Of a stretch of 64,000 nucleotides of DNA, positions 839 to 51,429 are shown in pieces. Origin of the DNA: Mobula birostris (Eukaryota). Within the stretch, counting starts at the first letter, position 1. The number at the start of each line of letters is the position of its first letter. The stretch is taken from the NCBI RefSeq assembly GCF_030028105.1, contig NC_092375.1, forward strand, positions 26,883,130 through 26,947,129. Direction: 5' to 3'. Both the position numbers and the translations under genes were made by a program. Below the pieces are notes generated by a model, which saw only the letters and a program-made list of their open reading frames with translations, was not told the DNA's origin and ran no database searches.

Positions 839-1037
839 CTGCACAACATCATCAGAATTACCTTAAGAATGAAGCTATTTTCAAAAAAAAAACTGCTTCA
901 CAAAATCCAAGTTAATTGATAGGATTATGAAAGAAAACAGCCAACAGGAATGCATAGAGAAACTTTGAAAAAAATTCGTTGATACTTCAGTATGTTTCTC
1001 AGCACTATAGAGCATAGGAGTCAGGATTAACTGTGAA

Positions 1038-1218
1038 CACGAGGAAATCTGCAGATGCTGGAATTTCAAGCAACACACATAAAAGTTGCTGGGGAATGCA
1101 GCAGGCCAGGCAGCATCCCTAGGAAGAGGTACTGATGAAGGGTCTCGGCCCGAAATGTCGACTGTACCTCTTCCTAGAGATGCTGCCTGGCCTGCTGCGT
1201 TCACCAGCAACTTTTATG
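1038..1218. mobile_element. Fold-back Penelope-like (PLE) 3'-end insertion with hammerhead core
   Basis: Inverted arms. ctgatga-agggtctcggccc-gaaat-gtc-gact at 1132-1163. TSD aggattaactgtgaa at 1023-1037 and 1219-1233. Confidence 0.85.
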
Positions 1219-1299
1219 AGGATTAACTGTGAAACCTGTTTTATCTATTATCATACTTAAGCATGTAGGTATGCAGGTTAAATTGAAATCAAAACCAGA

Positions 1300-2020
1300 A
1301 CCCTGGAAGAACTTAGTGGGTCAAGCAGCAGCAGTGAAGGCAGAAGGTGCAAAACCCTGTACCAGGACTGACAGGGAACAGGAAAGATTGTCAGTAGATA
1401 GCAGGATGCAAAGGAGTGGAGAGAGGCTGGTAGGTGACAGGTGAAGCCAGGTGGGGAGGGGATAAAAATCCAGGTGGGTAAAGAGGGACGAACAAAGGGA
1501 GAGGAAAACTACTTGTGTAATTGAGTGTATGAGGGAGGAGAACTCAGGGTGGAGTTGGAAATACAATATTCACATCAGAGGACAAGCCTCCCCAGTGAAA
1601 TATGAAATGCTTCTTTTCCCCAGTTTTCCATTGTACTGGAGAAGGCCGAGGACAGATAGGTCAGAGTGGGAGTAGGAAGGTAGGTCGGAAAAGCTCAAGA
1701 TGGCCGCTGCTGACAGACTGCAGATACTCTACAACATGATCACCTGGTCTACACTTGGTTTCACCAGTGCAGTGGCCCCATGGTGAGCACCGAACGGAGT
1801 GGACCAGGTATTCCATATATACAGCTATAGAGGGGCAAACCACCCAACCCCCACCCCACTTACTGCTGTTTCTTAACAGTCTTTCATCTTCCCTCTTAGT
1901 CTTGTTGCAGGGCCTCACCCAAAATGTCAACCTACACCTTCTGCCCCTACAGGTGCTGCTTGACCCTCAGTTCTTCCAGCATTCTTTGTTCTAGGTTCCA
2001 GCAACTGCACTTCCTTTTGT
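1300..2020. mobile_element. Old, diverged inverted PLE fragments
   Basis: Degenerate similarity to the PLE endonuclease end and 3' UTR on both strands. Confidence 0.55.
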
Positions 2021-3509
2021 TGTGGTGACCACGAGGTTGAAATAGCAGAAAATACTTTCTAAATAGAATAGAGTTAAAAGGAAACTACTGAAAGATTCAT
2101 CTTAAAAGGGTGTGGAGAGGATGTTTCCAATAGTGGGGAAGCCTAGAACCAGAGGCCACAGCCTCAGAATAGAAGTTCCTTTAGAACAGAGATGAGGAAG
2201 CAAAACAGATCCAGATTATCAGCTCCACAGATCTCATTTGTTGCTGACAAATTTAAATAACTTCACAGTAATTGCTAGTTAGCTAAAAGTCCTTCAGCCA
2301 GAGGGGTGGGGAATCTGTGCAATTCATTGCCACTGACGGCAATGGAGGCCAAGTCATTGGGTATATTTAAAGCGGAGGTTGATAGGTTCAATTAGCAAGG
2401 GCACAAAGATTACTGGGAGAAGATAGGAGAATGTGGCTGAGATGGAAAATAAATCAGCCACGATCGAATTGCAGAGCAAACTTAGTTGGCCTAATTCTGC
2501 TCGTATTAAAAGCACCTGGAACGATTTTCTTGAAGTTTCTTTTTTCTGCTCATTCTATACAAATATTGGAAGTTGCCTTTAGGACATAAAGGTTCAAGTG
2601 GCATTAACTACCTCATGCCAAGTGGCCTCAAAGTGAAGTACTGCACCTCTGCTCTGGGCCTCTCCATACTGATCTCTTGTAGGTAAGCAATTTATTGTCT
2701 ACACGGTCCCTGGCATAATTTTGTTCTGTCTAGCACCACAGATTTGTTGGACTCCTTCTCATCCTAACATATGTTTGGGCTGAGTTTTCAAAATGTGCAC
2801 TGGCCAATGACACAAGAACTTTCACAGTGTGATTTCTAATCCAATGTTAATTAATGATAGGAAAGCAATAAAATAATGAAATTCATCAAAAATGCTAAAA
2901 GTAATTTGCTTATGAAGACTCAGATAAATCTAACAGGCAACTATACAGTATTTAAAGTAAAAACATCAAGGGGTTCATATTATGTAATTTTGTATTACAT
3001 CATTTTATTTGTCTTTTCTGCACTTTGGTTGTTTGTCAGTCTCTGCTTGTGTGCAGTTTTTCATTGATTCTATTGTATTTCCTTGTTCTACAGTGAAAGT
3101 CTGAAAGAAAATGTATCTCAGTGAAGCATATGGTGGCATAATGTACTTCGATAATAAATTTACTTTGAACTTTTACACTCATTGCAAGGACAGATTCAGA
3201 TGTGGTAGTTACATGTTGAACACAGGAAGCAAAACAGATCCAGATTATCAGTGCCACAGATCTCATATGTTACTGGCAAATTTAAGTAATTTCACACCAA
3301 TCGCTAATCAGCTAAGAGCCTTTTCACATTCTCAAGTAGATGATCATCAATCCAGTTCCAAAATACATAAACCAAATACAGCCAGCAGTGAGGCAGGTGC
3401 TACTGGTTAAGCTCCATTTTGGGCAGACAACTGGATTAAATTTAGCAGCAAAAAGATAAAAACGATTTCGAAAACTTGACAGATGAGGAAAGAGGCACAC
3501 TTTACTCAC

Positions 3510-3578
3510 CGACACTTCTTCTCCCTCAAGCAGCTCTTCCACGACCACAGTTTCACCAGCAGAACCAAATGCCTTTTC
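3510..3578 (-). CDS. GART: GART coding exon 5
   Basis: EKAFGSAGETVVVEELLEGEEVS, 69 nt, aag| acceptor and |gtgagt donor, in phase with its neighbours. Confidence 0.95.
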
Positions 3579-48609: not shown

Positions 48610-50520
48610 GCCCAATGATTTGGCAGATTTATAGAGCTGCAACATTATCTTGTGGCTCTTGAACTTAATCCCTTCACTAACAAAGGCCAACACCTGTTTA
48701 ACCACTAATCAACTTGCATGGCAACTTTGAGGGATCTATGGTCTTGGACCCCTAGATCCTTCTGTTCCTCCATACAGTTAAGAATCTTGTCATTAACTTT
48801 GTATGCTGCCATCGTTCAGCATTCCAAAATGTATTACTTCACACTTTTCCAGATTGAACTCCATCTGTCACTTTTCAACCCAGTTCTGCATCCTGTCAAT
48901 GTCCTGTCATAACCCACAACAACCTTCTACACCATCACAACACTACCAACCTTCATGTTAACTGATAACTTAGTAACCCACCCTTCTACTTCCTCATACA
49001 TCCCAGAACAGATGCTGTGGAACAGTATTAATCATGGAACTCCAGGCAGAATATACTCCGTCTACCACCACCATCTGCCTTCTGTGGGCAAGCCAATTCC
49101 AAATCCACACAGCCAAGTTTCCCTGGATCCCATGCCTCCAGACTTTCTGAATGAGCCTACAATTTGTCATACATCTTCCTAAGATTCATATGCATTATAT
49201 CCCTGCTCTACCTTCCTCAATTTGTTTTGTCACTTTCTCAAAATGTCAGTTAGGCTCATGAGGCACAATTTGTCCCTAACTCAAATCCAGCTATGCTTCT
49301 CCAAATGCTTGTAAATCCTGATTCTAAGATCCTCTCCAGGACTTTGTCCGCTGCTGATAGAGACTCACTGGTCTATAAGTCCCAGGATTATCCCTATTTC
49401 CTTTCTTGAACAAAGGAATAAATTTGCCATCCTCCTATTGTCTGGTACTATTCCTGTGGCCAGTGAGGTCACAACAGTCATTACCAACAGTGCAGCAATT
49501 TCTACCCTCATTTTCCCATAGTAATTTAAGGTTCATCTCATTCAGCCCCAGGCATTTATCTATCTCAATGTTTTTCAAAAGTTCCAGCACAGCCTTTTTC
49601 TTAAACTTTACATGTTCCAGCACATTAGCCTGTTCTACACTGACTTCATGTTTATCAAGGTCCCTCTTACTGTTTAATACTGAAGTAAAGTATTCATTAA
49701 GGATCTCCCTTATCTGACTCTGGGTATGTTTCCCTTTTTCTTCCCTGAATAGTTCTACACTTTCTCTACTCATCCTGCTGTTCTTCAATTGCGTCTGGCT
49801 ATTCTCTAATCCTGTTGCCAAGGTTTTCTCATGTCCCTTTCTAGCTGTCCTAAATCCCTCTTAAACTCTTTTCTGACTACTTTCTAATCCTCAAGACCCT
49901 TGTCTGATCTTTTTCCCACCCCCTAAACCTTAAGTAAGTTTCTTTATTCCTCATGGCTAAATGTTCTACCTTGCTTGTCACCTGTGCTATCCTTCCCATA
50001 CTTCAATGGGACAAACCTATGCAGAACCCAGTTCAAGTGTTCCCTATACAACATCCACATTTCCATTGTACATTTCCCTAAGCACATCTGTTGCCAATTT
50101 GTGCTCCCAGGTTCTTGCATTAGAGCATCATAATGACCACAACATCGTAGATCCAAGTACTGATCCATGCTTTTAAGTTTATCGCCTGTGTTCCTGATTC
50201 TTCTTGCATTAAATTAGACACATCTCAAACCACCCAACTAATTGCATTTTTGCTCTATTCACTGCCTATCCTTCTTCGCTCTGTCTTTGCACAGTGCATC
50301 GACCCTTACATCAACTGCTCCCATCATCTGACCTTTCACTCTGGTTCCCATCCACCTGACAACCTAATCTATACCCGCCCTAGCAGCTCTAGCAAACCTG
50401 CCCTCAAGCACGCTGGTTCCTCTTGAGTTCTGTACAGCTCCTGCCTTCCACAGAAGAGATCCCAAAGATGGACAAATATGACACTCTGCCCATGCACCAA
50501 TTCTTCAGCATATCATTAAA
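48610..50520 (-). mobile_element. Degenerate CR1 LINE
   Basis: Decayed ORF2 motifs colinear with the young copy at 62.4-64 kb. Confidence 0.75.
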
Positions 50521-50893
50521 AATAAGAAATAAAAATGGTGGTAGGCCATTTGGCACCTTGTGTCTGCTCCACCTTGTACAGTTGCCAAACCTGTTTTCTG
50601 AACTATTTCCCTGCTTGGATCTGTTTGTACAACATGGGCAATACTATCTGAATCATGTAAGGATAATGTAATGGGTGAACAATGACACATATTGTTCATA
50701 AAAGAAACTGTTCTGCATAGCTCACATACACTATCATTGAGTTGTTGTGTTCACTTTAAGAGATGGTATCTGATGTAATGATGTCAGTATAAGGCAAACA
50801 ACAGGAATTCTGCAGATGCTGGAAATTCAAGCAACACACATCAAAGTTGCTGGTGAACGCAGCAGGCCAGGCAGCATCTCTAGGAAGAGGTGC

Positions 50894-50929
50894 AGTCGAC
50901 GTTTCAGGCCGAGACCCTTCGTCAGGACT
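50894..50929 (-). ncRNA. Minimal type I hammerhead ribozyme (intact core)
   Basis: The reverse complement is identical to 40881-40916. Confidence 0.8.
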
Positions 50930-51294
50930 AACTGAAGGAAGAGTGAGTAAGGGATTTGAAAGTTGGAGGGGGAGATCCAAAATGATAGGAGAAGACAGGA
51001 GGGGGAGGGATGGAGCCAAGAGCTGGACAGGTGATAGGCAAAAGGGATAAGAGAGGATCATGGGACAGGAGGTCCGGGAAGAAAGACGTGGGGGGGGGGG
51101 GTCCCAGAGGATGGGCAAGGGGTATATTCAGAGGGACAGAGGGAGAAAAAGGAGAGTGAGAGAAAGAATGTGTGTATAAAAATAAGTAACAGATGGGGTT
51201 CGAGGGGGAGGTGGGGCATTATTCTTCTCCTATCATTTTGGATCTCCCCCTCCCCCTCCAACTTTCAAATCCCTTACTCACTCTTCCTTCAGTT

Positions 51295-51330
51295 AGTCCT
51301 GATGAAGGGTCTCGGCCTGAAACGTCGTCT
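51295..51330 (+). ncRNA. Minimal type I hammerhead ribozyme (intact core, one helix I mismatch)
   Basis: AGTC-CTGATGA-agggtctcggcct-GAAAC-GTC-GTCT. Confidence 0.7.
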
Positions 51331-51429
51331 GCACCTCTTCCTAGAGATGCTGCCTGGCCTGCTGCGTTCACCAGCAACTTTTATGTGTGTTGCCAGTATA
51401 AGGCAATTGTCTTTTAGTTTGTTCGTAAT

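Follow-up and report, generated by a model that had tools for sequence, protein, structure and literature searches.

The question raised by this locus is whether short hairpin-shaped insertions, each composed of two outward-pointing 3' ends of one element, have been multiplied as MITEs or laid down by retrotransposition, and, if the latter, how one event yields two ends. The window, i.e., the whole stretch of DNA analyzed here, spans 64,000 nt of Mobula birostris (GCF_030028105.1, NC_092375.1, 26,883,130-26,947,129, forward strand); positions below are those within this stretch, and element positions are numbered with +1 as the A of ACG/ATG within the ribozyme core CTGAYGA.

Two-arm insertions and target duplications

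All seven fold-back insertions that a first-pass annotation had listed were found where it placed them, with two element 3' ends each, pointing outward. FB1 (1023..1233) joins a tailed arm on the minus strand (+30..+124/126) to a short arm on the plus strand (-3/-6..+84) between target duplications (TSDs) matching at 15/15 positions (1023-1037 / 1219-1233). Two events belong to an older subfamily: FB2 (10323..10581), with the short arm on the minus and the tailed arm on the plus strand (TSD 10323-10337 / 10567-10581, match 14/15, 6 nt overlap with the tail end), and FB3 (23574..23789), with the tailed arm on the minus and the short arm on the plus strand (TSD 23574-23587 / 23776-23789, match 14/14), whose short end (23775) is ambiguous in that six extra bases resemble the long end. 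In FB4 (31745..31991; TSD 31745-31760 / 31976-31991, match 16/16) a minus-strand short arm and a plus-strand tailed arm are both cut off at +6 and separated by 7 nt. FB5 (39540..40992; TSD 39540-39553 / 40979-40992, match 14/14) and FB6 (47840..48054; TSD 47840-47852 / 48042-48054, match 12/13) each lie in a LINE-like repeat, with the tailed arm on the minus and the short arm on the plus strand. Four tandem 77-nt copies (40090-40401) stand at the 5' end of the FB5 tailed arm, and the arms meet at a 4-nt inverted repeat, the centre being a hairpin of 4 bp with a 7-nt loop; the tailed arm of FB6 ends at +123, both of its arms are cut off at +12, and its centre is a perfect, loopless palindrome. 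FB7 (50785..51406; TSD 50785-50797 / 51394-51406, match 13/13) has a minus-strand tailed arm reaching to -285 and a plus-strand short arm starting at -73.

Seven is not the full tally, as a probable eighth event and single-arm copies with similar TSDs had been overlooked. The eighth, FB8 (21005..21114, insert 21019-21100), joins a tail-only arm of ~31 nt (minus strand) to an internally deleted short arm (plus strand), has a TSD of 12/14 and is nested in the middle of a decayed two-arm insertion of greater age (about 20965-21175).

The TSDs of 13-16 bp reported for the seven listed insertions hold in all of them (matches 12/13 to 16/16). Their scores were 10-16, and random position pairs rarely score alike (at least 10 in 1/600, at least 9 in 3/600), while the FB8 score of 8 was reached by 4/600 random pairs. 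Empty paralogues were found for FB6 (two) and FB5 (one), and because these sites carry the target once, both duplications are confirmed; the other six two-arm events and three single arms yielded none. The targets are ordinary sequence (TSD GC 46/114, window 42%), with no cut-site motif evident across the 16 nick contexts. Inserts measure 82-1425 nt between TSDs, and the arms of one event have diverged by 2.5-10%.

Identity of the element

Judged by their sequence features, the arms are 3' ends of an endonuclease-bearing, putatively Neptune-type Penelope-like element (PLE), and the earlier identification as a PLE was borne out by an endonuclease coding end, a ribozyme motif and a cysteine linker. 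The endonuclease reading frame has its C-terminal end in the FB5 short arm (40399..40587, plus strand), where 42/47 residues are identical to P0003. Relatives of the protein remnant in the window were retrieved with phmmer (best E 1.8e-67), its RT motifs align with theirs, and RVT_1 plus GIY-YIG were present in 7 of the 11 relatives scanned; a Pfam search of four window frames, the remnant included, gave no match. A CCHH motif with two cysteines between GIY and YIG occurs in P0003 and full-length relatives and is partly deleted in the window copy. The cysteine linker of CX2-5CxxC type, GTYPCKQKKCCTC, lies at 43191+ in a related older body, and P0003 has the same motif. Such a linker between RT and endonuclease marks the Neptune clade (Craig et al., 2021; PMC8557442), and its presence does not fit the Penelope/Poseidon clade, which lacks one. 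The Neptune-type assignment rests on this linker and on the report of Neptune PLEs from fishes (Cervera and De la Pena, 2014; PMC4209133), and Nematis shares the linker.

One of several putative minimal hammerhead motifs lies in the FB5 short arm (40878..40916, plus strand), with helix I AGTC/GACT, core CTGACGA..GAAAC and a palindromic ACGT, as read by eye against PMC4209133. The core pattern was found in seven element copies, near the 3' end and on the ORF strand, and in one unrelated chance match; Rfam gave no hammerhead match, its best matches being sub-threshold miRNA models. The window insertions also have 5' truncation, an inverted adjoining copy and a 30-40 nt tail at one end. No tandem or full-length PLE copy was found in the window.

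Arm end-points and truncation

In the window events, long arm ends cluster at +123..+130 and short ends at +84..+93. Two end-point classes had been proposed and both are seen, but they are not fixed as claimed: the ends spread over clusters 8-10 nt wide, so the start sites would be preferred rather than fixed, and the offset given as 35-45 nt is instead about 30-42 nt per event. A long end is paired with a short one in 7/7 listed events (8/8 with FB8), and under an independent 50:50 choice all-unlike pairs would be expected with a chance of 0.008 for seven events and 0.004 for eight. The truncation points were said to vary, and all eight central junctions do differ, but the 5' ends are non-random, since 10/16 arms begin at -8..+30, inside the ribozyme. 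Arm 5' ends lie 0-11 nt apart in FB2, FB4, FB5, and FB6, and the arms overlap in sequence in 7/8 window events. In FB1 (by 36 nt) and in FB8, the short-ended arm includes element sequence 5' of the point where the tailed arm stops, and is therefore not copyable from the tailed cDNA.

In 6/8 cases the tail end shares 1-6 nt with the target, totalling 18 nt over eight junctions (null mean 5.1, P 0.00025; overlaps read by eye, test post hoc), and overlap at the short ends was at chance in the window (5 nt over seven junctions, null 4.9). Private variants common to sister arms and absent from the subfamily's other nine arms number three in FB5 and one in FB6. The FB4 sister arms have no such variant in common (nine differences in 86), and the FB7 arms differ at +81, a position polymorphic among copies.

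The 3' end folded no better than shuffled sequence (z -0.6 and -0.4), and we therefore claim no structure at either start site. Ribozyme cleavage was rejected as the cause of the arm ends, the cut falling after +25 with no 3' end near and the nearest 5' end at +30. A spliced template for the 5' ends at -3..-8, considered because AG follows a pyrimidine tract near these positions, was likewise rejected, there being no upstream exon in common.

Single arms and decayed copies

Single tailed arms lie at 35550..35721 (arm 35566-35705, plus strand; TSD 14/16, short 5' filler) and at 44955..45090 (plus strand, young subfamily; headed by an inverted stub of 13 nt, without a TSD being found). Single short-ended arms lie at 33961..34036 (arm 33970-34025, minus strand; probable TSD 11/12), at 59290..59570 (plus strand; a weak TSD candidate whose score was matched by 83/2000 random pairs) and at 44652..44745 (minus strand; no TSD found), the last within a DNA-transposon-like repeat. 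hAT-like elements are present in the window. A 5'-truncated, frameshifted PLE body (42300..43916, plus strand) of a related older subfamily, with 67% nt identity to the FB5 arm, carries RT motifs, a CX4CxxC linker, an endonuclease remnant, the 3' UTR and the ribozyme and ends at the short site; neither a sister arm nor a TSD was found for it. TSDs were absent in 7 of the 10 single arms or decayed pairs examined. The decayed pair around FB8 possibly has two short ends and has no TSD. Because single copies, including the 1.6-kb body at the short site, end at either site, both sites appear to act as first-strand starts.

A second family in public contigs

A second, distant family with 38-51% identity in the main protein segments was found in public contigs, and its two-arm events have unlike ends in 7/7, with long ends at +134..146 and short ends at +76..97, one at about +44. 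TSDs measure 16, 13, 13/14, 13, 13, and 17 bp, with none in one event. The short-ended arm reaches further 5' in 6/7 events, and L082 has a tail-only arm, as FB8. The relative L011 is a partial tandem (direct pseudo-LTRs around the ORF) in which the 5' repeat continues in frame into the ORF beyond the stop point of the 3' repeat; because it runs past the end of the 3' repeat, the L011 end is read as a site lying within a tandem transcript. In L012, two arms end at the same point and no TSD is present. The 24-base arm motif had 0 stretches in viral and 0 in metagenome contigs, and none of 3539 candidates from a word-indexed search proved to be a longer homologue.

Probable twin priming and its alternatives

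Read from the sequence of old copies, these insertions likely arise by twin priming of a Neptune-type PLE on both target strands. Nicks made by the PLE protein in the two strands would lie 13-16 nt apart, and from the 3' ends so freed RT would start at two preferred RNA sites ~40 nt apart, a different one for each end, a few bases of primer-template pairing perhaps fine-tuning the start. The two cDNAs would stop early, often within the hammerhead, and their ends would be joined through 0-4 self-complementary nt or by way of a few filler bases, the downstream RT either halting near the upstream site, which would leave a tail-only arm, or reading through. Each arm reads as a first-strand cDNA from one TSD-bearing 3' end, and the loopless palindromic centre of FB6 is as expected if two cDNA ends anneal. 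The earlier proposal that both target strands prime at two sites on the element RNA fits these tests, with the sites better called clustered. Against this reading count the decayed pair around FB8, with its possible two short ends, and L012, whose arms end at one point, both without a TSD, and also the ambiguous short end of FB3, the chance-level overlap at the short ends, the 7/10 single arms or decayed pairs lacking a TSD and the PAc results on start sites given below.

We lean slightly toward both cDNAs of one event coming from one RNA molecule, from which the use of each site once per event would follow. Within twin priming, a more doubtful version is priming on two RNAs, with an asymmetric protein complex setting the start site per strand. 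The overlapping arms in 7/8 window events suit two RNAs, since a lone RNA could yield them only if copied twice; so does the FB7 difference at +81, which, like the FB4 arms without private variants, counts against a single RNA there. However, two RNAs need an extra rule for the 15/15 unlike pairs, and the tail-only arms of FB8 and L082 and the common private variants fit one RNA. Tentatively, and without quite favoring it, we consider two-strand priming as the normal, built-in way in which Neptune-type PLEs integrate, one protein dimer and one RNA acting together, with nicks 13-17 nt apart and one RT site per strand. The tail would then reflect the spacing of two RT active sites on one RNA and the TSD that of two nuclease heads, and rays would have the rule in common with a distant animal family, as a conserved feature.

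Outside twin priming, we regard fold-back self-priming as improbable. A tail-primed cDNA would fold, copy itself, halt ~40 nt early, either blocked or cut by the endonuclease, and join the second strand, which is near the "self-priming" and "EN-mediated resolution" proposed for PLEs (Arkhipova et al., 2013; PMC3846280; PMC8557442). One tail per event would come automatically, and arms ending 0-11 nt apart in 4/8 events, the looped FB5 hairpin and the private variants common to sister arms in FB5 and FB6 are all in its favor, but FB1, FB8, and 6/7 second-family events would need later large one-sided deletions, FB6 is loopless, and long copies without a sister arm also terminate at the short site. 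The short arms that reach further 5' and the tail-only arms argue, as far as sequence can, against a simple fold-back and for two-strand priming, although later asymmetric loss of hairpin centres could mimic a longer short arm.

Multiplication of a few chance hairpins by a cut-and-paste transposase, suggested by the short hairpin shape and the hAT-like elements, is rejected as very improbable because all central junctions differ, none being common to window copies, as do the lengths, and because the ends are unequal, the TSDs vary in length (13-16 bp) and both a ribozyme and coding sequence of the PLE endonuclease are found in the arms, in agreement with the retrotransposition first proposed. 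Inverted repeats do trouble assemblers, but an assembly artefact, or two unrelated insertions adjoining, is just as remote given the single TSD pair bounding both arms, their divergence, the empty paralogues and the same design in unrelated contigs.

Comparison with known systems

Published work on PLEs already covers inverted ends, a tail of 30-40 nt on one side, two sites of RT start and the extension of both strands; the first-pass annotation rightly took inverted PLE termini as known but understated the published extent (PMC11167929; PMC3846280; PMC8557442). What may be new is the strict pairing of one site per strand and the constant stagger. In vitro, PAc (Poseidon, Anolis carolinensis) cuts and extends both strands, with two RT start sites downstream of the hammerhead, the tail between them and a predicted dimer (Frangieh et al., 2024; PMC11167929). 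Two internal start sites bracketing the tail and both-strand use would be common to PAc and our element, whereas PAc belongs to another clade, without the CX2-5CxxC linker. PAc cuts at AT-rich ATT sites, the cut DNA showing no homology to the start site and the two strands no difference in start site (PMC11167929); here, in contrast, no cut motif is evident and tail ends mostly overlap the target. The main text of that study does not discuss TSDs, inverted products or site-strand pairing and leaves the steps after priming unvalidated, and the origin of PLE inverted ends and tails has been named an open problem (PMC8557442). Small insertions with clean TSDs offer a countable footprint in this respect (each strand using one site, a stagger of 13-17 nt, tail-only arms), each feature of which lends itself to testing in the published in vitro assay or to counting across a genome.

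Canonical EN+ PLEs likewise have an inverted copy adjoining the 5' end, a tail at one end only, a TSD around the whole unit and heavy 5' truncation (Schostak et al., 2008; PMC2377424; PMC3846280; PMC8557442), and the tail that accompanies the inverted copy has been described as 30-40 nt long and present on one side (Arkhipova et al., 2013; Craig et al., 2021). They differ in targeting microsatellites rather than ordinary sequence, and TSDs are 8-10 bp in the Adineta examples given, against 13-16 bp here. Both arms are mostly tiny in our insertions, unlike in canonical EN+ PLEs, and the unit therefore looks like a MITE; such copies risk mis-annotation as MITEs or miRNA hairpins. Twin or dual priming of LINE-1 leaves inverted pieces between TSDs of 7-20 bp (mean 14) (Meyer et al., 2010; PMC2837659), and there too both target 3' ends prime cDNA. 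In LINE-1, however, this is a side path with the second primer at a variable internal site and pieces without overlap, whereas in our insertions the two sites are preferred ones ~40 nt apart and overlap between the arms is the usual case. In Schistosoma, minimal hammerheads have been described in pairs on opposite strands, at distances of 100-700 bp (Cervera and De la Pena, 2014; PMC4209133), with no apparent analysis of their ends or TSDs; they carry the same minimal ribozyme type and, like the insertions described here, are close inverted pairs from truncated PLEs.

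Duplicated targets of the two-arm insertions

All seven fold-back insertions proposed in the first-pass annotation are present as described (FB1, 1023-1233; FB2, 10323-10581; FB3, 23574-23789; FB4, 31745-31991; FB5, 39540-40992; FB6, 47840-48054; FB7, 50785-51406), each consisting of two outward-facing, 5'-truncated 3' ends (arms) of a Penelope-like element (PLE), one tailed and one ending earlier. The target site duplications (TSDs) of 13-16 bp claimed for them held in every case, with 12-16 positions matching (15/15, 14/15, 14/14, 16/16, 14/14, 12/13, and 13/13 for FB1 to FB7). 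In a TSD scan of 14 intervals, scores were 10-16 for the seven insertions, 10 for a single arm at 35566-35705, 8 for a probable eighth event (FB8, 21005-21114; scanned as 21019-21100) and at most 1 for the remaining five; among 600 random pairs, 3 reached 9. The target stands once in paralogous copies of the host repeats, two for FB6 (near 62741 and 8510) and one for FB5 (near 62955), indicating that the repeats flanking these insertions are true duplications. The TSDs have background G+C (46/114), and no cut motif was evident. At least three PLE pieces cluster at 20880-21175, where FB8 occupies the middle of an older two-arm copy, suggesting that it inserted into the PLE's own ribozyme region. 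Another two-arm copy, at 19590-19800, is old and decayed and belongs to a more distant subfamily; it apparently combines a short and a tailed arm, and no TSD was found around it.

The FB5 arm encodes the C-terminal end of the endonuclease, with 42 of 47 residues identical to an endonuclease-bearing relative (P0003), and a 1.6-kb PLE body at 42300-43916, sharing 67% nucleotide identity with this arm, holds reverse transcriptase (RT) motifs and a CX4CxxC linker. Linkers of this type mark Neptune and Nematis and are missing from Penelope/Poseidon (PMC8557442), and judging from sequence motifs the element is probably a PLE of the Neptune or Nematis side. Pfam gave no match on the window frames of the element, and RVT_1 and GIY-YIG were found in 7 of 11 relatives scanned. 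By motif pattern, the arms contain a minimal hammerhead core of the type in PMC4209133; an Rfam search of the window did not detect a hammerhead. The closest named relatives of the Penelope protein remnant belong to two rays, Mobula hypostoma and Hypanus sabinus (names available for 3 of 7 proteins), which makes a ray the likely host.

Two kinds of arm end

Counting from the A of ACG/ATG in the ribozyme core CTGAYGA as +1, the 3' ends of 24 scorable arms form two clusters, 12 at about +84 to +93 and 12 at about +123 to +130, with no clear end between them; positions of the older subfamily were shifted by 4, and three arms with cut-off or decayed 3' ends (near 1296, 20881, and 22964) and two decayed pairs (19590-19800 and 20965-21175) were excluded. 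All eight two-arm events pair one long with one short end, 30-42 nt apart. The two end-points previously described as fixed are clusters rather than single points, and the offset lies slightly below the 35-45 nt first estimated. The FB3 short end carries six additional tail-like bases. Single copies end at either site.

The joins had been described as variable truncation points; their positions do differ, but 10 of 16 arm 5' ends fall at -8 to +30, within the ribozyme, and are not random. In four events both arms stop within 0-11 nt of one another, and the FB6 centre is a palindrome without a loop. Many arms start exactly at ribozyme helix I, directly after a pyrimidine tract and AG, where PMC4209133 places an intron end in D. 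virilis. Seven 5' ends lie at -3 to -8 (1129, 10439, 21052, 23712, 35578, 44742, and 44955), and an RT stop, the RNA 5' end or a splice-related cause may account for them. The 5' end of the FB5 tailed arm holds four tandem 77-nt copies (40090-40401), of which copies 2 and 3 have two variants in common and the sister arm agrees with copies 1 and 4; the array could have arisen when RT primed again at a stall, or through a later duplication in tandem.

A second family in public contigs

A profile built from 14 relatives, searched against metagenome and genome contigs, gave 80 metagenome loci (the best 80 of 498) and 6 genome loci, several of the 86 coming from one and the same assembly. Flanks were adequate at 41 loci, 11 of which have an inverted arm. 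Across all 86, a distant second family (38-51% identity to P0003 in its main protein segments; linker pattern intact in five of nine loci checked and interrupted by a stop in a sixth) showed seven two-arm events (L019, L043, L066, L067, L072, L082, and L084). All seven combine a long end (+134 to +146) with a shorter one (+76 to +97; about +44 in L066). TSDs matched at 16/16 positions in L019, 13/13 in L043, L072, and L082, 13/14 in L066 and 17/17 in L084, under a loose null in which 6 of 400 reached 13; none was found for L067.

Among the remaining inverted cases, three (L029, L057, and L076) reach contig ends, L001 is ambiguous, and L012 has two arms with the same end-point and no TSD found. 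At L011 the 5' repeat carries on in frame into the ORF past the stop of the 3' repeat, as in the Poseidon-clade PLE of Anolis carolinensis studied in vitro (PMC11167929). Four separate families (L011, L012/L020, the second family, and that of the window) have the short site at about +82 to +91 relative to the ribozyme core; tail length differs, being about 40 nt in the window and about 59 nt in the second of these families found here. L081-L086 are animal-type PLEs found in two records labelled bacterial MAGs, where contamination from a host is the likely source.

Probable priming at two sites

With a TSD on either side, the duplicated target is present at the 3' end of both strands, and by the geometry of the sequence the arms read as cDNA extended from these ends. 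Copying of one arm from the other by fold-back would account for four events that look exactly as it predicts, but it is impossible where the short-ended arm extends further 5' than the tailed arm, as in FB1, FB8, and six of the seven second-family events; FB8 and L082 have a tailed arm with hardly anything beyond the tail. Counting against this argument, later deletion within hairpin centres may have produced such a further reach. Arm reach, single copies at either site and the loopless FB6 centre together point to two separate priming events, at two sites on the element RNA, as the best reading of the two-arm insertions, and priming by both target strands, as first proposed, is likely right.

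Since all 15 of 15 pairs are of unlike ends, use of one RNA molecule by both primers would be the simplest explanation. Sister arms share variants missing from other arms (three in FB5, one in FB6); the comparison of 14 versus 7 and 4 counted against FB7 is weaker and includes FB7's own changes. Counting against one RNA, the FB7 arms differ at a polymorphic site, the FB4 arms have no shared private variant, and most arms overlap in sequence, so that a single RNA would have to be read twice. The decayed pair around FB8 (20965-21175) may have two short ends, which counts against strict pairing.

Overlap with the target, scored by eye and post hoc, totals 18 nt across 8 junctions for tail ends (null 5.1, P 0.00025) and 5 nt across 7 junctions for short ends (null 4.9). 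Several second-family events have a short end that also overlaps the target; hence overlap is not confined to the long site.

Relation to known elements

For PLEs, both the architecture and the greater part of the mechanism are already published. Earlier work describes inverted pseudo-LTRs, one with a 31-bp tail, and TSDs of 8-10 bp (PMC3846280), in contrast to 13-16 bp here; extension of both strands from two start sites in the Anolis element (PMC11167929); close ribozyme pairs on opposite strands (PMC4209133); a 34-37 bp repeat with inverted termini in Drosophila (PMC2377424); and twin and dual priming of L1 (PMC2837659). The same PLE end pattern is restated in PMC8969392, and searches by term in PMC12602865, PMC12910113, and bioRxiv 10.64898/2026.07.22.740005 gave nothing further on PLE ends. 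The literature searched, chiefly papers outside subscription journals, yielded no statement of one start site per strand or of a 13-17 bp stagger for PLEs. The insertions are real and the mechanism first proposed is likely correct; strict pairing, tail-only arms, and a stagger common to two distant families bring an open question into sharper, testable focus.

Other features of the window

An unrelated hairpin (38689-38942; 122-nt arms, 90%, 10-nt loop) lies within a DNA-transposon-like repeat. The stretches 45512-46807 and about 44060-44800 hold the decayed remains of a hAT-type transposase (Dimer_Tnp_hAT, E 0.00036) together with DNA-transposon-like repeats that are nested and have a paralogue near 39066-39499. 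Another retroelement remnant at 5941-6877 has a zf-RVT match (E 0.0001), followed by a frame that may resemble a restriction-like endonuclease. The window, which is vertebrate DNA, also contains a DNAJC28-like host gene on the + strand (25177-26376), whose intact ORF lies in a single exon and encodes 399 aa, including DnaJ and DJC28_CD domains.
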